DNA of 64,000 nt from Chiloscyllium plagiosum. Its lineage: Eukaryota. Positions 2,346 to 51,588 of the stretch are shown here, piece after piece; within the stretch, counting starts at the first letter, position 1; every line of letters begins with the position of its first letter. The DNA lies in contig NC_057730.1 in NCBI RefSeq assembly GCF_004010195.1, positions 19,628,687 to 19,692,686 on the forward strand, given 5' to 3'. A program made the translations under genes and the position numbers. The notes beneath the pieces were generated by a model. It searched no databases and was not told the origin of the DNA. It saw nothing but the letters and a program-made list of their open reading frames with translations.

Positions 2346-3465
2346 ATTAATGCAGAGCAGTGGACATGGTTTACATGGACTTCAGTAAAGCCTTTGTCAA
2401 GGTTCTGCATAGTAGACTAATTAGTAAAGTTAGATCCACATGGGGTTCAGGGTGCATTTGTCAACTGAATACAAAATTGGTTCAATGGAAGGAGACAGGG
2501 GGGCAGGTTGTTTTTCGTACTGGACTCCAGCCACCTGAGTGTTCCGCAGGGATCGGTATTGCGTCCACTTTTGTTTTGGATGTGAATATAGAAAAGTATG
2601 GTTAGTATGTTTGCATTGACATTAAAATTGGTGGTATAGTGGACTGTGAAGAAGGTTGTCTAAGATTATAAAGAGATCTGTTGGGGCAGTGGACTGAGGA
2701 GTGGCAAATGGGGTTTAATTTGGATAAATGCAAGCTATTGCATTTTGGTAATACAAACAAGGACAGGACTTCAATTAATGGTAGGATTTCAAGTACATAA
2801 TTCTTTGAAGTTTGTGTCACATGTAGACAGGGTGGTTAAGAAGGCATTTAGCACATTTGCCTTCGTCACGCAGACTTTTGAATATAGGATTTGGGAAATG
2901 ATATTAAGGTTGTACAAGACATTGATGAGGCCTCTTCGTGAGTACTATGTGCAGTTCTGGTTGCCCTGTTGCTTGGAGGATGTTATTAAGCTGAAGAGGA
3001 TTCAGAAAATATTTACTGGGATGTTGCTAGGCATGGAGGGTTTGATTTATAAGGAGAGGCTAGGACTTTTTCCACTGGAGCATAGAAGGTTCGAGAGTGA
3101 CCATACAGAGGTTTATAAAATGGTGAGGGGCACAGGTAAGGAGAATGGCAGGTGTGTATTCCTTGGATTGGAGGAATCAAGATTTGGGTGGGGCAGGGGG
3201 GCATATTTTTATGGTGCGAGGAGAAAGATTTAGAAAGAACCTGAGGGGCAACTGTTTTTTACATAGAGGGTGGCTCGTGTGTGAATGAACTTCCAGAAGT
3301 AGTTGTGGGTACAGTTACAATGTCTAAAAGACATGTTAATCAGTGTATGAATAAGAAATATTTGGAGGGATATGGGCCAAGCACAGGCATGTGGCACTAG
3401 TTTAGTTTGGGATTATAGCATGGACTGGTTGGACTGAAGGATCTGTTACTGTACTATATGACTCT
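2346..3465 (+). mobile_element. 5'-truncated CR1 LINE (second copy)
   Basis: DMVYMDFSKAF, YKTLMRPLREYYVQFW and ERLGLFPLEHRR motifs; CR1 3' tail ...gtactatatgactct. Confidence 0.88.
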
Positions 3466-4199: not shown

Positions 4200-4420
4200 T
4201 AAAGGCAAAATATTGCAGATGCCGGAAATCTAAAATAAACAGCGCTGGAGAAATGCAGCAGGTCTGGCAACATGTCTAGAAAGAGAAACAGTTATTGTTT
4301 CAAATCCAATATGACACTTCTTCAGAACTGAAGAGTCATAATAGACTTGAAATGTTAACTCAGTTTTTCTCTCCACAGATGCAGCCAGGCTTGCTGAATT
4401 TCTCCAGCATTCTGTTTCAT
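4200..4420. mobile_element. palindromic element made of two inverted Penelope-like terminal repeats
   Basis: Left arm gctggagaaatgcagcaggtctggc is the approximate reverse complement of right arm gccaggcttgctgaatttctccagc; centre cttcttcagaactgaagag. Confidence 0.7.
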
Positions 4421-4568
4421 TGAACTGTTGATTGAGAAATTGGGTGGTCCACGACAGTCTATTGGCCAAAGAGTGGTGATTAATATCATGCCTGCATTTA
4501 TTCAACTTTGTCTTCATGTGTTTGAGAAGTTTTTTTTAAGTAATCAATATATTTTTTTTCTGTTTCAG

Positions 4569-5984
4569 GGCAAATCAAAACAAATTGCTAATGTCTTCTA
4601 AAGCCAGTTCTGCAATAAATCATAGTGGGGGTGGTGGTGATGCAGACACAGTACATACATACATGGCTGACAAGCAAGCAAATCCACTGGTCTCTCCACT
4701 AAAAGAAGCCACTGATGGGCCATCCACATCATCCACAGTCAATCCTATTAAAAGCAACAGTGAACTTCAGAAAAATATCGCTGAATGTTGTCATGTTAAC
4801 AGTAGTTCCCATGACCAAAGTCCTGTCCACAAAGTACAAGCAATTCCAGAAATTACTGAAACCCAAGAAAAATTAAGGCCTAATCAGGTCAAAGAGGAGA
4901 TGCAGACTGGTGACCATAAGACCAATATTCATGGTTTTGAAAATAAGCAATCAAGTCAAGATCTAGGCAATAAGGTGCCAGAATTGCAAAATCACAGTAA
5001 TAACCCTCAATCTAATAACAACCAGGAAAGTATTTTGGAAAATGAAAGTCAATCTTGTAAGGAACACTCCTACAGGGGGAGGACTAATCAGGATGATTCT
5101 ACAGGAAGAGATCATTGCAACAAAAAACCTCAGTCTGATAGGGTAACAAATAACGAAGTCAAGAACTGGGTAATTGAGGAAAGTCGTCAACCTGTCAACA
5201 AAAATCAATATCACGAAAACGAACCAAGTCAAGACATACAGCAGAAACCAGAGCAGCAACCAACTAATTTTGTGGAATCTCCCATTGGGGAACATTTGAA
5301 TGAAAATAAGAACAGCATTTCAGAACAGGATAATACTTACAAAGACGTCTGTCTTCTGTCACCAAGGAAAAATATAGCTGGTCCAGAGGAAATGCAGGTT
5401 CAGCTGAAAGAAAACTCAACTTTCGTCGATGTAAAATCTCAATGTAGAGAAAGGACTGGTGCAGAAAAGAATAGAACTTTACAAAAGGATAGTTATAAGG
5501 GTGAGTCTAATTATAGACACAGATCTAGGGAACACAAAGATAGAAGAATGCACCAAAATGCAAGGGAGTTTGAAAAATCAGCAAGTTGCAATTACAGGAA
5601 TTGTTCCCACAAGCAAGATTATTATCAAGACAGTCGCATTGATAAATATAGAAGAAATAATGAGTGTCCAGCTGATAGGCAAAACTACAGTAATTCAAAG
5701 ACAAGCTCATTACTAGCTTATTATCCTTATCAAGATAGGTTTTACAGAGAGAAATATAATTCTGGCTCAAATGGAAGGACTTGGAGCAGTCAATTTGAAT
5801 ATAATGGACTGGAACACAAATATGAGCATAAAAGGAAACGTAATAATAGTGTGAATGATGAAGGTGATCCTGAAAGGAAATGTAAAAAACTGCATCGATC
5901 ATCTGAGGAGAGGAGAATGAAAAAGCATAAAAAATCAAAGAAAAAAAAGACATCAAAAGACAAACACAGAAGTAGAGACCACAG
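4569..5984 (+). CDS. USP42: USP42 large low-complexity exon (C-terminal disordered region)
   Basis: Acceptor tgtttcag|G at 4568/4569 and donor CAG|gtatga at 5984/5985; open frame ending KKHKKSKKKKTSKDKHRSRDH, like the human USP42 lysine-rich region; convergent with CYTH3 as in human. Confidence 0.88.
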
Positions 5985-6342
5985 GTATGATTCGAAGCTT
6001 GTTGTTGTAGCTTTTGTATTCATCACCACCTACATCAGTATAAAACGGTTTTAAATGTTTCAGAAACTTCCTGTGGCTACACTTCTACATTCTTCACAGA
6101 TTATTTTGAAGTCATTTTAATTTTTATTTATTTATTACCTATAATCAAGTTTGCTTGCACAGGTCTGTATTTGTGACATGGCTGGTGGAAGGTTAGAACC
6201 TCTAGGAGCCTCTGCAGTACCAGGGCTTTGCTGCATTTTTGCAAGACACACTGTTGATTCTGTCCATCTGTAAATTGGCTGAGAATAAGGTGATCTCATT
6301 AATGCTCATCCTCAAGATTGTTCATCTTGGCCAATACTAGAA

Positions 6343-6505: not shown

Positions 6506-7088
6506 TCTTGAATATCTTAAGTTCTGTGGATTTAGTGATAGAAATAATTGGGACTAGAGCCATTTTCTTTCTCTCCAGTCCAATATTGGCATCAAGCTGC
6601 CATGATATTGGTCGACTTTAGGGTGAAGCTCCTTTGGCTTTCTCCACACAATTTGTGTAAACTCCAAGATAGATAAAGGAATCCTAAACTACTAATGTGA
6701 TTTTCATTTGCCAGATCGCATGAGACTCCCATTGCTCTGAGTGAGTACCAGCAAGGATAAGACATCTGTTTGCATTTAATTATTGTTGGAGATTTGTGAC
6801 TGTAGTAGCAGGCCACTTTTGAAACTTCCTTTTGAAGTATTATAATTAAGTATTTAAAATGAAATCAATTGTGAGAAATTTGCGATAATAGCATGTAATT
6901 CAGAACAAGTGACTTTTGCAAATCTGAGGTTTTGATTTTAAATGTGTCATTAGCAGCAGCAACACTGCCAAAAATTTGAAAAATGGCCTTTTCTTCCTCA
7001 GTAAACTTTAAGTAGACAGTGCAAAGTTTTTCTTTTGTATTTTCTGCAATTTTGCCATTCACTGATTTATAAAATCTGCATTTTCAAG

Positions 7089-7417
7089 GCAACAACCTTT
7101 TGGTGCATCTGAGGCAAGCTGTGACATTGATGAAAGAAAGCACAGGAAGAAGAAGAAGAAGAAAAAAAAGAAACGGCATCACAGTGATAAAGACAGCCAT
7201 TTTCAGAAAGAGCATTATCATTCCAGGAAACATCATAGCATGAAATCACCTCATGCCAGTAACAAATGGGAAAGGTTCTGTGAGTCAACTCGAGGTACCT
7301 ATTCTGAAGATAAGATGATCCATAGAAATAAACAAACCGGTGGGGATCAAATTCCACAGAAAGAAAAATTGCCACATTTGGACACTAAGCTAAATGGCTC
7401 CCATGTCCACAGCAAAG
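7089..7417 (+). CDS. USP42: USP42 exon with poly-Lys tract
   Basis: ttttcaag| acceptor and AAAG|gtagga donor; phase matches the upstream exon; encodes RQQPFGASEASCDIDERKHRKKKKKKKKKRHHS, like human RHQQDSD...HKKKKKKKKRHS. Confidence 0.85.
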
Positions 7418-8331
7418 GTAGGATGCAGTGAAGAGTTATGATCAGTTTTGGTAAAATGTGGCATTGGTCTTAATTCTGAAAATAGAGTTCATGCTAGTTT
7501 GATTTTGTATGATCTCAATATTGGACATTTCATTCACACCAAAGCGCGCTCAATGGATAAAATTTCAATTAACATATTTAATTCCATTTTAAATATAACT
7601 CTATTGTACTTCAGTCATAATGTAAATATCTTAAGATTAGCCTTATGCAACAATATTAATATTTGCAGTTAATCTCCATTTTTTCAGCGTACATCGACTT
7701 AGTTATGCATCTAAAGAACTACTTGTCATCATTGATGTACACCTGTGGCAGAGAAGCCTTTTGGCTTCATTCATGAAAATAATACACTTGATGGATGCAT
7801 TTGTTTATAAACCTCATGGAGTAATATGAAAATAAGCAGGAAGCACAACTTTGTCTTATGTTCACAAATTGTGCCAAAGCTCTTGACACTGTCCAGCATA
7901 TTGCTCTATGGAAGACACTTACACACTTTGCATCCAAACTTATGTTACTAATAAGAGAGCTATACAGAAATGGTTGTGATATGAGTTAGTGATAGGCATA
8001 CAAACCAATTCCAGTTTGAGAAGGGATTCATATAGGAGTTTCTGCCATCACCCATGCTGTTTAGTATGGGAGAGAAGGTAAAGACAATGGTGCAAGAAGA
8101 CTTACCATAGAGATGCATCAGTCTCCTAAGAGGTTTTAGAATGTGAAATCTCAGGTATGTAGTTGACAACACACATCAACAGAATAGAGAGAGAGCTCGG
8201 GACTATGACAAGCATAGTCAAAAGACACAGTGAGTCTTTTGAATGAATGTAAATGAGGTAAACGACCAGTATTATGCTTCTAGATGGCAATGGAAAAGTC
8301 AAGATTATAAGTGGTGAGAGACAGTTAGCAA

Positions 8332-11389: not shown

Positions 11390-11495
11390 CAAAGCAAAAT
11401 ACTGCAGATGCTAGTAAAACTCAGCGGTGTGGCAGCATCTGTGGAGAGTGAGTGAGTTAACCATTCAGTCTGACATGACACCCCTTCAGAACTGA
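11390..11495 (-). mobile_element. Penelope-like terminal-repeat fragment
   Basis: aaaatactgcagatgct...gcagcatctgtggagag...cttcagaactga, homologous to the arms at 4200 and 14520. Confidence 0.55.
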
Positions 11496-11566: not shown

Positions 11567-12422
11567 GGAAAAGTGAGGGCTGCAAGTGCTGGAGATCAGA
11601 GCGGAAAATGTGTTGCTGGAAAGACGCAGCAGGTCAGGCAGCATCCAAGGAGCAGGAGAATTGACGTTTTGGGCATGAGCCCTTCTTCAGGAATGAGGAA
11701 AGTGTGTCCAGCAGGCTAAGATAAAAGGTAGGGAGGAGGGACTCCCACTTCCTCCAAACCAAAGGAATAGGCCCCAGCTATGCCTGCCTTTTCGTAGGAT
11801 ATGTGGAACAGTCCATCTTCCGCAGCTACACTGGCACCACCCCCACCTTTTCCTCCGCTACATCGATGACTGTATCGGCGCTGCCTCGTGCTCGCACGAG
11901 GAGGTTGAACAGTTCATCCACTTTACCAACACCTTCCACCCCGACCTCAAATTCACCTGGACCGTCTCAGACTCCTCCCTCCCCTTCCTAGATCTTTCCA
12001 TTTCTATCTCGGGCGACCGAATCAACATGGACATTTACTACAAACCGACCGACTCCCACAGCTACCTAGACTACACCTCCTCTCGCCCTGCCCCCTGTAA
12101 AAACGCCATCCCATATTCCCAATTCCTTCGTCTCCGCTGCATCTGCTCCCAGGAGGACCGGTTCCAATACCGTACAACCAGATGGCCTCCTTCTTCAAAG
12201 ACCGCAATTTCCCCCCCGACGTGATCGATGATGCCCTCCACCGCATCTCCTCCACTTCCCGCTCCTCCGCCCTTGAGCCCCGCCCCTCCAACGCCACCAG
12301 GACAGAACACCACTGGTCCTCACCTACCACCCCACCAACCTCCATATACAGCGTATCATCTGCCGTCATTTCCACCACCTCCAAACGGACCCCACCACCA
12401 GGGATATATTTCCCTCCCCTCC
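11567..12422 (+). mobile_element. Penelope-like element: inverted terminal repeat (11567-11743) plus RT region running into the gap
   Basis: Translates to GPSYACLFVGYVEQ..FLRYIDD..FHPDLKFT..LPFLDL..DIYYKPTDSHSYLDYTS..KNAIPYSQFLRLR.ICS (PLE RT and thumb); CpG-rich. Confidence 0.9.
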
Positions 12423-13246
12423 NNNNNNNNNNNNNNNNNNNNNNNNNNNNNNNNNNNNNNNNNNNNNNNNNNNNNNNNNNNNNNNNNNNNNNNNNNNNNN
12501 NNNNNNNNNNNNNNNNNNNNNNNNNNNNNNNNNNNNNNNNNNNNNNNNNNNNNNNNNNNNNNNNNNNNNNNNNNNNNNNNNNNNNNNNNNNNNNNNNNNN
12601 NNNNNNNNNNNNNNNNNNNNNNNNNNNNNNNNNNNNNNNNNNNNNNNNNNNNNNNNNNNNNNNNNNNNNNNNNNNNNNNNNNNNNNNNNNNNNNNNNNNN
12701 NNNNNNNNNNNNNNNNNNNNNNNNNNNNNNNNNNNNNNNNNNNNNNNNNNNNNNNNNNNNNNNNNNNNNNNNNNNNNNNNNNNNNNNNNNNNNNNNNNNN
12801 NNNNNNNNNNNNNNNNNNNNNNNNNNNNNNNNNNNNNNNNNNNNNNNNNNNNNNNNNNNNNNNNNNNNNNNNNNNNNNNNNNNNNNNNNNNNNNNNNNNN
12901 NNNNNNNNNNNNNNNNNNNNNNNNNNNNNNNNNNNNNNNNNNNNNNNNNNNNNNNNNNNNNNNNNNNNNNNNNNNNNNNNNNNNNNNNNNNNNNNNNNNN
13001 NNNNNNNNNNNNNNNNNNNNNNNNNNNNNNNNNNNNNNNNNNNNNNNNNNNNNNNNNNNNNNNNNNNNNNNNNNNNNNNNNNNNNNNNNNNNNNNNNNNN
13101 NNNNNNNNNNNNNNNNNNNNNNNNNNNNNNNNNNNNNNNNNNNNNNNNNNNNNNNNNNNNNNNNNNNNNNNNNNNNNNNNNNNNNNNNNNNNNNNNNNNN
13201 NNNNNNNNNNNNNNNNNNNNNNNNNNNNNNNNNNNNNNNNNNNNNN
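12423..13246. other. assembly gap (N run)
   Basis: Continuous Ns. Confidence 1.
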
Positions 13247-13635
13247 GTCGGAGGCTGAGGGGTGACCTTATAGAGATTTATAAAATCATGAGGGGCATGG
13301 ATAGGATAAATAGACAAAGTCTTTTCCCTGGGGTGGGGGAGTCCAGAACTCGAGGGCATAGGTTTAGGGTGAGAGGGGAAAGGAATAAAAGGGGCAACTT
13401 TTTCACACAGAGGGTGGTACGTATATGGAATGAGCTGCCAGAGGAAGTGGTGGAGGCTAGTACAATTGCAACATTTAAGAGGCATTTGGATGGGTATATG
13501 AATAGAAAGGGTTTGGAGGGATATGGGCCAGGTGCTGGCAGATGGGACTAGATTGGGTTGGGATACCTGGTCAGCATGGACAAGTTGGACCGAAGGGTCT
13601 GTTTCCATGCTGTACATCTCTATGACTCTATGACT
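13247..13635 (+). mobile_element. CR1/HER1 LINE 3' end
   Basis: RRLRGDLIE.YKIMRG, TRGHRFRVRG and FFTQRVVRIWNELP motifs; (ctatgact)n tail. Confidence 0.9.
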
Positions 13636-14519: not shown

Positions 14520-17165
14520 GGAAGCCAAAACGCGCACTGCTGGAGAAACTGTCAACATTTGAGGAGAGAAAGCAGAGTCAATATTTCAGGTCCAGTGACC
14601 CTCCTTCAGAACTGATAATAGCTAGGAAAAGGTGGTATATATGCATAAGACAGGGGGTGTGGGGCGAGACCTTTGGGGAGATGAAACACAGATTGGCTGA
14701 CTGCTTTGCAGAACACCCATGTTCAGTCTGCAAAATGACCACAAGCTGCACTTCAATGCACATCTGTGTTCCCTGGCCAAAATTACTATATCGAAGCTCA
14801 GTGAATTGGATTGAATTGAATTTATTGTCACGTGTATTGAAGCACAGTGAAAAGCTTTGTCTTACAAGCGATACAGGCAGATCACGTAGTTAAGTAGTAT
14901 AGATAGTAAATAATAGGTAAACAGCGGCAAAAACAAAAAAACAGGTACAGGCGAATGTTAAGAGTTTGAGTCCATTCAGTATTCTAACAACAATAGGGTA
15001 TAAACTTTTACAAAACTGGCAGGTGCATGTATTCAGGCTTCTGTACTTTCTCCCCGATGGTAGAGGCTGTAGAAAAACATTGCCAAGGTCGGATGGATCT
15101 TTGAGAATCCTGGCGACCTTTCCTTGACAGCGGGCCTGGTAGATGGATTCAATAGATGGGAGTTTGGCCTTTGTGGTTGTCCGGGCTGAGTTCACTACTC
15201 TCTGTAACCATCGCCGATCTTGAATGGTACAGTTGCCATGCCAGGTAGTGATACATCCAGACAGAATGCTCTCAATGGCGCACCTATAAACGTTGGCAAG
15301 GGTATTCGCTGTCATGCCAAATTTCCTCAGTTGCCTGAGGAAGAGATGACGTTGGGCCTTTGTAACCAGTGGTTCCACATGAAGAGTCCAAGAAAGTTTG
15401 TTGTGGATGACCACTCCCAAGACCTTGACACTCTTCACTCGTTGCACCTCTGCTGTTAATGTGTACGGTGGCATGAGTAACATCCCGCCGACAGTCAATA
15501 ATGAGTTCCTTGGTTTTGCTGGCATTGAGAGCTAGGTTGTTCTCAGTGCACCATTTTTCCAGGTTTTCCTCCTCCCGTATATAGTCTGTTTCGTCGCCAT
15601 CTGAGATTCAACTAACTATGGTGGTGTCATCAGCGAACTTGCAAATGGCATTAGTCCGGTATTTGGCGATGCAGTCATGGTTATACAGTGAGTACAGTAA
15701 GGTCTGAGTACGCACCCCTGCGGGGGAGGGGGTGGGGCCAGTGTTGAGTGTTAGTGAGGATGAAATATTGTTCCCAGTCTTCACTGATTGTGGCCTGTGA
15801 GTCAGGAAACTGAGGATCCAGTTAGAGTGAAGCTTGGTCCGAGATCACTAAGTTTAATAATCAGTCTCAAGGGGATAATAGTGAACTGTAATCCATAAGT
15901 AAGATTCTTACATAGCTGTCAAGATGTTCTCAGGATGAGTGAAGGGCAAGTGATATAGCATCTGACATGGATCTGTTGGTCCAATAGGCAAATTGGAGTA
16001 GGTCAAGAGTAGTGGGGAGGTTGGAGTTGATTGATGCCATGCCCACCAAAGCACTTTATGACCACTGAGTTTAGGGCCACTGGGTGGTAGTCATTGAGAC
16101 ATGATGCATGAGCTGCCTTAGGCACAGGGATGATGCCGGCCCTCTTGAAACAGGCAGGGATGTTGGCCTGCTGGAGGGAGAGGTTGAAGATGTCTGAGAA
16201 GACCTCTGCCAAATGATCTGTGCATGCTCTGAGTGCACAGCCTGGTACTCTGTCTGGTCCCATCACTTTCCTTGGATACACACAAAGGAAAATTGATCTG
16301 ACCTCTGATGCAGAGACTGTTGGGATAGGTTCGTCAGGACTTGTCAGAATAGGTGTTACCTCTCTGCCGAAATTCTGCTCAAAGCAAGCATAGAAGGCGC
16401 TGAGACCAGCTGGGAGGATATGTCCTCGTCTGCTATCTTGCACTGTCTCTTTTTAGAATCTGTGATGTGATTCAATCCTTGCCATAGTCGCGGGGTGTCT
16501 GTCTGGGTCTATAGTTTGGATTGGCATTGGTCCTTGGCTGTCCTAATGGCTCTGCGAAGGTCATACTTGGATTCCTTATATTTGAGTGGATCTCCTGATT
16601 TGATCTGAAGGCCTCACATCTGGTTTTTAGCAGATTCTGTATGTCTTGATTCATTCAGAGCTTCCTGTTGGGGAACACCCGGATTGACTTCCTTGGTATG
16701 CAGTCCTCCACAGTGCACTTTTTGCTTGGGAATCCTGCAGCCTTCAGGGATCAATAATTTTTGGTCTTGAACAAAAACTGGTGTGGAGGTGTGTCCTGTA
16801 CCCCCACCACACACACACACACCCCTCCCAAACATGGGCTGTTTTCAGCCCAGTCATCCCATTTTCACCAACATATGGCTTTATTTATCAGGTTTTCTTT
16901 CTATTTGGCTTACTATTATCCATCCATTTGTCTGTCTAACTGGCTTTCTCTCCCTCTGGGCTGTATCCACCTATCAAATACTGTTGTCTCCCTTTAAACC
17001 CCCCACCCCCACCCCCAAAAAAAGAAATCAGTTACACTCGGTTCTGAAGGAAATCATTTGGACTCGAAACACTGACTCTGATTTCTCTCCACTGATGCTG
17101 CCAGATCTGAGTTTCTCCAACAATTTGTTTATTTCAGATTTCCAACATTGACAGTTCTTTGTTTT
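14520..17165 (+). mobile_element. Penelope-derived element with inverted termini, split by a Rex1/Babar insertion
   Basis: Inverted arms 14520-14640 and 17040-17165; GIY-YIG remnants (GEMKHRLADCFAEH at ~14680 and LGILQPSGIN at ~16725) flank the LINE. Confidence 0.65.
14803..16715 (-). mobile_element. Rex1/Babar non-LTR retrotransposon, 5'-truncated
   Basis: GPDRVPGCALRAC, NDYHPVALNSVVIKCF, KFADDTT and KAQRHLFLRQLRKFG..YRCAIESILSGCITTWHGNC motifs; (attga)n tail at ~14803-14820. Confidence 0.88.
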
Positions 17166-38664: not shown

Positions 38665-38821
38665 TAGGAGAAAGTGAGGACTGCAGATGCTGGAGACCAG
38701 AGTTGAAAAGTATGCTGCTGGAAAAACACAGCAGGCCAGGCAGCATCCGAGGAGTAGGAGAATCGATATTTCAGGCATAAGCCCTTCTTCACGAAATGTT
38801 TTTCCAGGACCACACTTTTCA
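38665..38821 (-). mobile_element. short Penelope terminal-repeat insertion with partial inversion and 10-bp TSD
   Basis: Reverse complement of the 41640-41770 tail; TSD acacatatga at 38655-38664 and 38822-38831. Confidence 0.75.
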
Positions 38822-39995: not shown

Positions 39996-41316
39996 TGATG
40001 CGATGTGTAGATCGAATGACTTCCTTCAGTGCAGAGACCATTCTACGTAAGAAATGGGCTCCTCTGGCCACATTAGCTCAATTTTAAAATTCTGGATCAA
40101 AGATACCTTAAGGCCCATCCCACCTAGCTCTATAATCCTCTAAGGTATCCAAATGTCTCTAATTCTAGCCTCTTGCACAGTCTCAATTTCCATCACTTCA
40201 CTATCACAACCATCCTGTCCCTTTAGCTCTTGGAATTCCACCCATCCACCTCCCTAACTCTTTCTCATCTTTTATGACACTCCTTAAAATTTACTACTTT
40301 AACTTCTTTTCAGATCTGTGACATTTATGTGCCAACATTTAGTCCCATGGTTTGATATCTCTTAATGTGGCTCAAAGTACAATTATGTCTGATAGAACTC
40401 TCCTACGAAGCATCATTGGAACTAAACCTGTGTAATGGCCAGCATTAAATACAAGTTCTTTTTAATCATCATTTGTCACAAGTCAATATATGGAAGTAAT
40501 ATCTTATAATAGTAGGAAGAAAAACAATATTAAATAGATCACCAGGAAGAATAACATAAGTTACAAAATTAGATTCATGTAAGGCACAGCTAGAGGTTGC
40601 AAGTGAAAAGCAGTAAGATTGGTATTCTGCAAGAACAGCTTTAAATCAGCTAAAGGTCCCACATAGTTCTAAGTCCACCTTGCAAAACTACTCATTTGCC
40701 CTATTTATGTAAAGTACAAATTTTCCATCTCAGGTTAGAAGACCTGCAGTGCTCATGCCCATTCCTCTTCTATTTCCCAAAGTACTGCAGTCAGCAAAGA
40801 GAGGACAGCATTCCAATGTGTTGGACTTCGAAAGAATTTTTATGCTTTAATTACACTCCTGCCAGGGAATTCTCTACATTTAAAATTGCCTTGGCTTGCT
40901 AAATAACTATCCTCTGGCTAAGCAACACATCTGTAAAATATTTTGCTGAAATCTTAGAGAGTATAGTTACCAGATTAGGACAAAGTGCATTCCTTCCAAT
41001 GCTTGGAAGTTATTTATTCTCATGGTTTTCCTTCTCTTCATCCTCAGCAAGCAGCATCAATCCATTCTTGTTAAATACACTCAACATAGTATATCAGCTT
41101 ATCTAACCACTTCAAGGACTGATAAAAGAAACAAAATAAACAAACTATCCAGCATCAACTGGGACTTAGAGAGTGACAACAGGTCACAGTTCTGTCAATT
41201 CTGCAAGACCCGCTTATTAACTCCCTACTTGTGCCATAATTGGGAGAGCTGACTCACAAACTAGTTAGGAAACATAAGGTATGATTCTGTGGGAATGACT
41301 ATGCCCCAGACAACAT

Positions 41317-41770
41317 TGGACTCATCCACCGCCAAACCACAACAACGCGACGGTCGGAGGAGGAGCGTCTTATCTTCCGACTGGGAACCCTCCAACCACA
41401 GGGGATGAACTTGGACTTCACCAGTTTCTTCATCCCCCCTCCCCCCACCTTGTCTCAGCCGAATCCCTCCAGCCCGGCACCGCCTTCCTGACCTGCAGTC
41501 TTCTTCTTGACCTCTCCGCCTCCATCCTACTCCGACCTATCACCCTCACCTTGACCTCTTTCCACCTATCACATTTCCAACGCCCCTCCTCCAAGTCCCT
41601 CCTCCCTACCTTTTATCTTCTCCTGCTGAACACTCTCTGCTCATTCCTGAAGAAGGGCCTGTGCCCGAAACGTCGAATCTCCTGTTCCCTGGATGCTGCC
41701 TGACCTGCTGTGCTGTTCCAGCAATAAAGTTTCAACTTTGATCTCCAGCATCTGCAGACCTCACTTTCTC
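41317..41770 (+). mobile_element. young 5'-truncated Penelope-like element (GIY-YIG C-terminus plus terminal repeat)
   Basis: EEERLIFRLGTLQPQGMNLDF motif; TSD ccagacaacat at 41306-41316 and 41771-41781; CpGs intact. Confidence 0.9.
41643..41678 (+). ncRNA. minimal type I hammerhead ribozyme motif in a PLE terminal repeat
   Basis: ATTC-CTGAAGA-A-GGGC-ctgt-GCCC-GAAA-CGTC-GAAT: stem I ATTC/GAAT, core CUGANGA and GAAA, stem II GGGC/GCCC, NUH site GUC. Confidence 0.75.
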
Positions 41771-41999
41771 CCAGACAACATCACCCTGCCTTTATACTAC
41801 ACCGTACTGCCAGTTCAGAAAGGAGGGAGCTACCATACATGTCTTCAACATAAACTCTACAAGTCATGAAATCTCATGGCATCAGGTCAAACACAGGTAA
41901 GCAAACTGCCTGTTGATCATCTATAGACCTCACTCTTGGCTGATGATCAGTTCTCCTGCATGTTGAATACCACCCTGAAGCAGCACTGAGAAAGGTAAA

Positions 42000-44580: not shown

Positions 44581-45127
44581 ATTTTTTTTAAATTTCTGTT
44601 TCACCTCTATTAAAATAAACTCTGCAAATACTCTTTTCATACACACATTAAATCTCCATCACCCTCCCCCAAATATCTGGGCCTGAAACATCAATTCTAA
44701 TTTCTGTCCACAGATGATGCCAGACTTGCTGAGCATTTCCAGAATTTCTGTTTTTGCTTCAAATCTAACCTTGCTCCTATACAGTTGATCAGCAGCAAAA
44801 TGGTAGAAAAAAATTGTCAACAGAACTATTAAGCAGCACTTTCTCAGCAATAACCTGCCCACCAATATTCAGTTTGGGTTCCAACAGGGCTGCACACCTT
44901 CTGACCTCACTACAGCTTAGTCAAAATATGAACAATAGAGCTGAACTCCAGAGGTGAGCTGAGACTGAAACTCCACCTACCTGCACACCCCACACCTGAG
45001 GCTCTCAAACAATAGGCTTTCCTTCGAGTCACTAAGGGTATTAAGTCCTCTTTAGAATTCTAAAGAGGAGAACGGAGAAGGCGTTTTAAATTCTTCGCAA
45101 CGAAACCATGATCCCTGGAGCATCACA

Positions 45128-45578
45128 TGCTGAGGGATAACCCTGCAGAGGTTTATAAAATCATAAGAAATACGGATAGGGTAACTAGAGGGCACAGCTT
45201 GAAGGTGAGAGGAGAAAGATTTAAAAGGGACCTAAGGGGTAACTTTTTCATGAAGACAGTGATGTGTGTATGGAATGAGCTGCCAGAAGATTCTTCCTGC
45301 TCCTCAGATGGTGCCTGACCTGTTGTGCTTTTCCAGCACCACTCTAATCTAGACTATGATTTCTAGCATCTGCAGTCCTCACTTTTGTCCAGAAGTGGTG
45401 GTAGCGGCTAGTATAATTACAACATTTGAAAGACATCTGGATGGGTTTATGAGTAGGAAGGATTTAGAAGGATATGGGCCAAATGCTGGCAAATGGGACT
45501 AAATTAATTTAGAATATCTGGTCAGCAAGGACGAGTTGGACCGAATAATCTATTTCCATGCTGTACATCTCTATGACG
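45128..45578 (+). mobile_element. CR1/HER1 3' end
   Basis: TRGHSLKVRGERFKRDLRGNFF..WNELPE; tail catctctatgac. Confidence 0.85.
45290..45388 (+). mobile_element. 99-bp Penelope terminal fragment nested in the CR1
   Basis: TSD ccagaag at 45283-45289 and 45389-45395; homologous to 41676-41770. Confidence 0.8.
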
Positions 45579-50705: not shown

Positions 50706-51588
50706 GTGAGATTTGTAGCTCAGGTTGATGTTATGGATGTAGGTTTGCTCACTGAGCTTAAGGTTCGTTTTCAGATGTTACATCACCATACTCGGTAACA
50801 ACATCAGTGTGCCTCCGGATGAAGCACTGTGACATGGCCAGCTTTCTATTCGTGCATTTAGGTTTCTTCGGTCAGTGTTGTCATTTCCTGTGGTGATGCC
50901 AATGCCTGTTCATTTTCTTCGGGGGTGGTAAATGGAATCCAAGCGACAAACCCAAACAAGCAGACAAAACACGTCCAGAAACCCTAGCCACTCTCCCCTA
51001 TATCAAAGATATCTTGGAAATGACTGCCAGATTACTCAAACCCCTTGGCATTATGGTAGCCCACAAATCCACCAACACACTAAAACAGCAGCTAATGAAC
51101 TTGAAAGACCCTATACAGACAACAAGCAAAACTAATGTCATTTACAAAATACTTTACAGGAACTGTAACAAACACTACATTGGACAAACAGGCAGAAAAC
51201 TAGCCACCAGGATACATGAACATCAACTAGCCACAAAAATACATGACCCACTCTCACTAATATCTTTACATACAGAGGAGGAAGGACACCACTTCAACTG
51301 GGACAACACATCCTAGGACAAGCCAACCAGAGACATGCACGAGAATTCCTAGAAGTATGGCATTTCAACCAGAACTCTAACAACAAACACGGTGACTTGG
51401 ATCCCATTTACCACCCCCTGAGAAAAATAACAGGAAATGGCATCACCAATCCAAGAAAACCGAAACACAAATAGAAAAAGTGGGCCATGCCACCAGTGCT
51501 TCATCTGGAGGATCACTGATGTCACCCAGTTTGGTGACAAACCATCTGAAAACAAACCTTCCAGGCCAGCAAGCAAACCTACATCCAG
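50706..51588 (+). mobile_element. Penelope-like element: inverted terminal repeat plus GIY-YIG endonuclease and direct terminal repeat
   Basis: NVIYKILYRNCNKHYIGQTGRKLATRIHEHQLA (GIY-YIG); ends are inverted copies of each other. Confidence 0.88.

Follow-up and report, generated by a model that had tools for sequence, protein, structure and literature searches.

A 99-bp Penelope-like insertion that begins beside a predicted hammerhead cleavage site in Chiloscyllium plagiosum

Hammerhead ribozymes in the repeats of Penelope-like elements (PLEs), their weak cleavage as dimers and the occurrence of truncated single copies have already been described (PMC4209133, PMC6765202; here and below, published work is cited from the available parts of each source). 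The weak hammerheads of animal PLEs have poor activity in vitro (PMC4209133), and in Anolis the ribozyme is dispensable (PMC11167929). The Anolis element, the Poseidon element PAc (Frangieh et al. 2024, PMC11167929), resembles the family described here in having a hammerhead in its terminal repeat and fixed 3′ ends; its cleavage needs protein, can be dispensed with for insertion in vitro and, in the data available, leaves no RNA ends at the cut. In R2 (Eickbush et al. 2013, PMC3774820), cutting by an HDV-like ribozyme determines the template's 5′ end and the new copy is joined through microhomology, which is the mechanism that the original prediction proposed for the locus below. R2 differs, however, both in its ribozyme and in its element class, and there the cut defines full-length copies (PMC3774820), whereas the usual 5′ end in the present family lies 32 bases upstream of the cut. 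Non-LTR retrozymes, finally, are built from non-coding units in tandem, every unit containing a type I hammerhead, and one of nine Xenopus dimers cut in vitro (bioRxiv 10.64898/2026.07.22.740005, as available). In the available text of PMC4209133 the 5′ ends of genomic copies are not related to the cut, and the word shark is absent from its main text. Literature titles and abstract openings contained no report of genomic PLE copies starting at the cut; supplements (PMC11167929 Fig. S2, PMC4209133 and the bioRxiv paper) may bear on this.

The locus lies in a 64,000-nucleotide stretch of the Chiloscyllium plagiosum genome (NC_057730.1, positions 19,628,687 to 19,692,686), referred to here as the window and numbered from its first base. 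The original prediction was that a short retroposed fragment in this window starts at a hammerhead cleavage site and may be a cDNA of the 3′ self-cleavage product. The features of the locus are as follows.

45120..45282, plus strand: 3′ part of a dead LINE ORF, the host sequence to the left of the insert, from alignment to a paralogue; the mapped limit is the junction side
45283..45289, plus strand: left copy of the target-site duplication, 7 bp, CCAGAAG; the final G is possibly also element base +1 (1-nt microhomology)
45290..45388, plus strand: 99-bp insert, the 3′ portion of a Penelope-like terminal repeat, from +2 past the predicted cut to the family 3′ end
45389..45395, plus strand: right copy of the target-site duplication; its leading CC equals the last two bases of the family 3′ end
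45396..45560, plus strand: host LINE beyond the right end of the insert, collinear with the segment on the other side, from the paralogue alignment; the mapped limit is the junction side

CCAGAAG is the sole repeat of seven or more bases around the insert ends, its two copies being separated by 99 bp; a comparable 7-mer repeat, equally close to the ends and equally spaced, was found in 98 of 20000 random placements. With the insert and one copy of the repeat removed, the LINE (which we take to be CR1-type from its protein end) aligns gap-free over the junction to a paralogue at 13347-13609 (77.6% identity over 272 columns), and the restored empty site forms a single open reading frame. The identical seven bases occupy the corresponding place in a second paralogue, 3199-3447. 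The target duplication and the restorable empty site are those expected of TPRT-type retroposition. Because of the 7-bp repeat and the gap-free, in-frame empty site, 45290-45388 is a genuine insertion with a 7-bp target duplication, as had been claimed for 45283..45395. An assembly artefact was considered and rejected on the strength of the gap-free empty site; in addition, six sequencing runs contain at least half of the locus words. No RNA run carrying the insertion locus was present among the runs listed. A non-LTR retrozyme was considered and rejected, the insert being a single unit with neither tandem arrangement nor ribozyme core.

Copies of the same family elsewhere in the window provide the frame of comparison.

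41305-41316 and 41770-41781, plus strand: 12-bp direct repeat, the duplication of the 41.6-kb copy
41317..41769, plus strand: reference copy of ~450 bp, a 5′-truncated PLE comprising the end of the RT/GIY-YIG ORF and the terminal repeat
41643..41678, plus strand: minimal type I hammerhead within the reference copy, cut predicted between 41674 and 41675
38667..38796, minus strand: same-family stub that starts at the ribozyme front edge; +1 is 38764
~38797-38820, in the opposite orientation to the stub: short inverted piece of the stub's own tail, preceding it
11570..11743, minus strand: same-family copy running through the ribozyme to about -81; +1 is 11662
11744 onward, plus strand: inverted RT piece joined to the 11.6-kb terminal repeat, junction at ~11743

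The insert is 76-80% identical to the copies at 41.6, 38.7 and 11.6 kb. It represents a subfamily that differs from all three, having another block past +49; it has one extra base near its 5′ end and is without the ribozyme core. Judged from translated sequence, the family is an endonuclease-bearing (EN+) PLE, since the 41.6-kb copy starts within the C-terminus of an RT and GIY-YIG protein: 41315-41458 matches the C-terminus of P0004 (tblastn, 62.5%, E 1.9e-13), for which Pfam gives the domains RVT_1 and GIY-YIG. At 87% identity, the RT piece spanning 11.8-12.2 kb matches a protein of Chiloscyllium punctatum, proteins of other carpet sharks and of rays coming next; a Pfam search with three short pieces of the window returned no domain. 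The hallmarks of PLEs are present, namely a fixed 3′ end, variable 5′ truncation and inverted 5′ pieces (at 11.7 and 38.8 kb). The family 3′ end falls at 41771, as judged by loose ends in all four runs used (618 contigs in X1, 674 in X10). These are the largest rows of 3′ loose ends and the insert extends to this point, so that a further part of the original prediction, that the insert reaches the 3′ end of the element, is confirmed.

In its anatomy the insert resembles truncated EN+ PLE insertions described in the available text of PMC8557442 and PMC3846280: it is a short, 3′-anchored piece of the terminal repeat, heavily truncated on its 5′ side and flanked by a target duplication; its neighbours have inverted 5′ pieces, and there is microhomology at the junction, as in those insertions. 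Target duplications of PLEs in Adineta measure 8-10 bp (PMC8557442, PMC3846280, as available) compared with 7 bp here. Unlike the EN+ insertions known from these sources, this copy is without the ribozyme, starts at the predicted cut and has no inverted piece.

The window contains further traces of such elements. The 11570-12423 region is an inverted Penelope insertion whose plus-strand RT piece runs into an assembly gap of N, and the 38.7-kb stub has a possible imperfect duplication of 11-13 bp at ~38654 and 38821. Decayed stubs of related Penelope-type families at 17043-17162 (plus strand), 14523-14611 (minus) and 11390-11490 (minus) begin a few bases before the CTGAAG core, and another, at 44677-44760 (plus), starts inside stem II. 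By tblastn, 50897-51316 contains a fragment of a further Penelope-type ORF whose end is GIY-YIG-like, and at 4209-4418 two stubs of a second hammerhead family lie head to head, joined at their ribozyme front edges at ~4324-4327. The segments 4540-6054 and 7066-7431 are presumably long coding exon(s) of a host gene with a USP42-like C-terminus. Two predicted Chiloscyllium proteins, P0123 and P0125, have a C-terminal peptide translated from the same repeat as the insert family, that of P0123 beginning at about the ribozyme front edge; the peptide is either an exonised repeat or an annotation artefact. Both target duplications (41305-41316/41770-41781 and 45283-45289/45389-45395) start with CC and share CCAGA. 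The CC common to these duplications and to the family 3′ end, in two cases only, hints at a 2-base priming homology or at a target preference.

The hammerhead of the reference copy (41643-41678) comprises a 4-bp stem I, a CUGAAGA core, a bulged A, a 4-bp stem II, GAAA and a palindromic ACGU. Parsed by hand, all eight pairs are Watson-Crick, with G10.1-C11.1 as the first pair. It thus corresponds to the minimal hammerheads of metazoan PLEs (Cervera and de la Pena 2014, PMC4209133, as available) in its core, the bulge before stem II, the G-C first pair, the palindromic ACGU and the 4-bp stem I; stem II, on the other hand, has 4 bp compared with 7-8 bp in the Schistosoma families (PMC4209133). 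The core pattern matches at three places in the window, 0.09 being expected, and the full anatomy is found at 41647 only. From standard hammerhead numbering, cleavage is predicted after C41674 (of GUC), which makes 41675 position +1. An Rfam search returned no hammerhead family up to E 1; this lowers the hammerhead reading little, because the minimal forms of PMC4209133 came from a descriptor search. Free folding did not recover the ribozyme and gave structures no better than shuffles (z 0.56 and 1.44). Most of the family depth has T at +3, which places a U-U mismatch within the 4-bp stem I.

Two side observations concern this domain. In the family majority an ATG lies in the stem II loop (41661-41663 and homologous sites), 14 bases ahead of the cut, as in Anolis PAc, whose ORF is described as starting within the ribozyme; in the window copies the frame of this ATG is short or exits the element. 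Contigs in X1 join the front edge (11693/11694) to 11663, just beyond the cut; five bases intervene at this joint, which may represent a small duplication of the ribozyme domain.

Where does the insert begin in relation to this cut? Its local alignment starts at +1 against the 38.7-kb copy, at +2 against the 11.6-kb copy and at +6 against the 41.6-kb copy, an additional insert base being needed for each of the first two. The G at 45289 is common to target and element and can be read as either, which places the start at +1 or +2. We rejected a start at +5 preceded by four filler bases, since this would need four chance matches. The insert thus begins within one base of the predicted cut. The original alignment of the insert to the bases right after GUC had the register right, with 41675 at +1; its minus-strand coordinates need to be amended, from 38761 and 11659 to 38764 and 11662. 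Under a uniform model with two of ~95 possible start positions, a start at +1 or +2 has a chance of ~2% per copy, of 0.08 for at least one of the four same-family copies and of 0.19 for at least one among ten stubs. The insertion and its duplication exceed chance; the position of the 5′ end may lie within it.

To place this start among those of its relatives, public contigs and reads of Chiloscyllium plagiosum, from four of 24 runs, were aligned to two references, the 41.6- and 11.6-kb copies. For the former, X1 and X10 are DNA contigs, X21 is raw RNA reads and X9 probably RNA contigs; for the latter X1 alone was used, with 50173 contigs aligned, 6003 of them partly. Contigs enter the count only when they have a seed in the reference, and RNA reads do not amount to independent genomic copies. 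The 5′ ends of the family are non-uniform. The main pile of true 5′ ends lies at -32/-31, at the first base of hammerhead stem I (41643, or 11694 on the minus-strand copy), where unrelated flanks begin in 302 contigs of X1 at -32 (11.6-kb reference) and in 207 reads of X21 and 22 contigs of X9 (41.6-kb reference). No 5′-end row at +1 to +4 is present among the 24 rows listed on the 41.6-kb reference, where 1049 more exist, or among the six listed on the 11.6-kb reference, where there are 160 more. Whilst the original prediction had set a sharp peak at the cut against uniformly distributed truncation points, the outcome is a third one, with the main pile at -32 and no sharp peak at the cut among the rows listed. 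Since the strongest rows of true 5′ ends lie at -32/-31 and none is listed at +1 to +4, cleavage is not what sets the usual 5′ end of these copies, and a start at the cut is not the rule for this Penelope family.

How large a class at the cut could be is bounded as follows. Starts at +1 and +2 should share row 11661, because the 11.6-kb reference has A at +1. This row is absent from the six listed, of which the smallest has 302 contigs, and likely holds fewer than 302 of the 6003 partly aligned contigs, if rows are ranked by support; a row of only 15 stood among those listed on the 41.6-kb reference, and the ranking is thus an assumption. The 160 further rows on the 11.6-kb reference average at most 23 contigs, and a minor peak at the cut, up to ~13-fold over the mean, is possible and compatible with the data.

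Other 5′-side rows also lie within the ribozyme. On the 41.6-kb reference they are at -13 and -7, and their loose letters for the most part read on into the element for ~20 bases. On the 11.6-kb reference the row at -7 (497 contigs) is a clipping artefact, because its loose letters continue as ribozyme, and that at -23 (331 contigs) is likely to represent clipped front-edge copies, since the next nine letters match the element at seven. Summed contig depth falls from 9.9 million at 11655-59 to 6.5 million at 11660-64; this drop across the cut is uninformative, because short, high-depth contigs clip at the +1 mismatch of the reference and other families share the downstream block only. One contig piece listed in X10 has long loose ends and its start at +4, as expected for a cut-site copy on the 41.6-kb reference.

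Across -16 to -36 the RNA reads of X21 lose about half of their depth (875 of 1768). The drop in depth is 22 per base from +11 to +3, compared with 4 from +15 to +11, and between +3 and -14 it amounts to 29 per base (17 without the -13 row), so that more alignments end around the cut than just downstream of it. Reference mismatches, other diverging families or a cut-site class could cause these extra ends. No pile of molecule starts was reported among the 3305 aligned X21 reads, a result that carries little weight because X21 is a polyA single-cell library, of which ~2 in 100 reads were read, and was not built to retain 5′-OH ends.

By eye, ten stubs in the window divide by their start into six at the front edge (including two that form one head-to-head pair), two further upstream, one within stem II and one at the cut. 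The stub profile was seeded from seven of the ten and kept matches with E below 1e-7, eight weaker rows being excluded. Scans for the tail pattern elsewhere gave 0 and then 6 matches in metagenome contigs, 0 in viral contigs and 3 in GTDB genomes; all nine loci match across 22-27 bases only and were rejected as chance matches of bacterial type. Protein searches with the translated repeat for more copies yielded no candidates, two unrelated matches and three matches from two shark genes.

What, then, produced the start beside the cut? We favour, at roughly even odds, an ordinary truncated copy that starts there by chance as copying ended early; it is the likelier account of this single copy because its relatives most often start 32 bases further upstream. 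The endonuclease (GIY-YIG) of the element would nick the target LINE, the reverse transcriptase would prime at the element 3′ end, where two bases match the target, and ~100 bases of uncut RNA would be copied before the enzyme dissociates; the new end would then anneal to the target via the one common G, and repair would create the target duplication. We infer these steps from the anatomy of the insertion and from known PLE insertions (PMC8557442, PMC3846280, as available). Against chance stands a start no more than one base from a position specified beforehand, the 2% event noted above. Close behind ordinary truncation comes cleavage: the RNA of the element, in dimeric form or with the aid of its protein, may have been cut by the hammerhead and the 3′ product copied to its 5′-OH end, by a minor route beside the front-edge route. 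This account, to which we attach a little less than even weight, has on its side a start that equals +1 if the common G is counted, the complete minimal hammerhead of the 41.6-kb copy and the additional loss of X21 reads around the cut. From the published work available it can draw on the in vitro cutting of the PAc hammerhead upon protein addition (PMC11167929) and on R2, where an end-cutting ribozyme yields variable 5′ junctions via chance microhomology (PMC3774820). It has to contend, however, with the absence of a cut-site row among the rows listed, the main pile being at -32, with a sample of one, with a motif that folds no better than shuffles, and with the T at +3 and its mismatch in stem I. 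Minimal hammerheads are, moreover, poor cutters in vitro (PMC4209133, as available), whilst PAc ribozyme mutants insert normally in vitro and, in the available part of PMC11167929, no RNA reads begin or end at the cut. The broader proposition, that a minor class of family copies, including this one, begins at the hammerhead cut through germ-line cleavage, with the 5′-OH product copied and inserted, we regard as possible, though somewhat short of an even bet. The alternative that the original prediction itself named, chance truncation helped by microhomology, suits this copy equally well.

Two further accounts involve no cleavage. The insert might be a front-edge stub that has lost its ribozyme, the first four bases of a -32 start being followed by +5 onward through a 32-base copying jump or a later deletion. 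The four front-edge bases together with +5 to +10 match nine of the first ten bases of the insert (with either the 41.6- or the 11.6-kb copy), and the sole mismatch, T at +5, is a variant found in 12% of the family depth, so that a subfamily with T there would make the extra base unnecessary. Front-edge starts are also the commonest class, and joints that skip or step back occur in the family. We nonetheless think this improbable: it demands a jump of exact span, of which there is none among the joints listed, and a one-base insertion in a pyrimidine run, in a copy 7-9% diverged, is the simpler event. Least likely of all, and very improbable, is a stall of the reverse transcriptase on reaching stem I (+4 to +1) of the folded ribozyme in uncut RNA, which would end copies near the cut without cleavage. 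Although the 3′ strand of stem I is the first ribozyme element encountered in copying and there is extra loss of reads from +11 to +3, stem I has only 4 bp, the fold does not exceed shuffles in stability and the commonest copies traverse the whole motif.

As a single copy, the insertion cannot bear a claim of germ-line cleavage, and the locus is one data point for a genome-wide count. A genomic class of PLE copies starting at the cut would give a cheap and countable read-out of cleavage in vivo, and would add in vivo evidence beyond the in vitro work on PAc. If such a class is real, its size in each subfamily would measure the in vivo activity of the ribozyme over evolutionary time.
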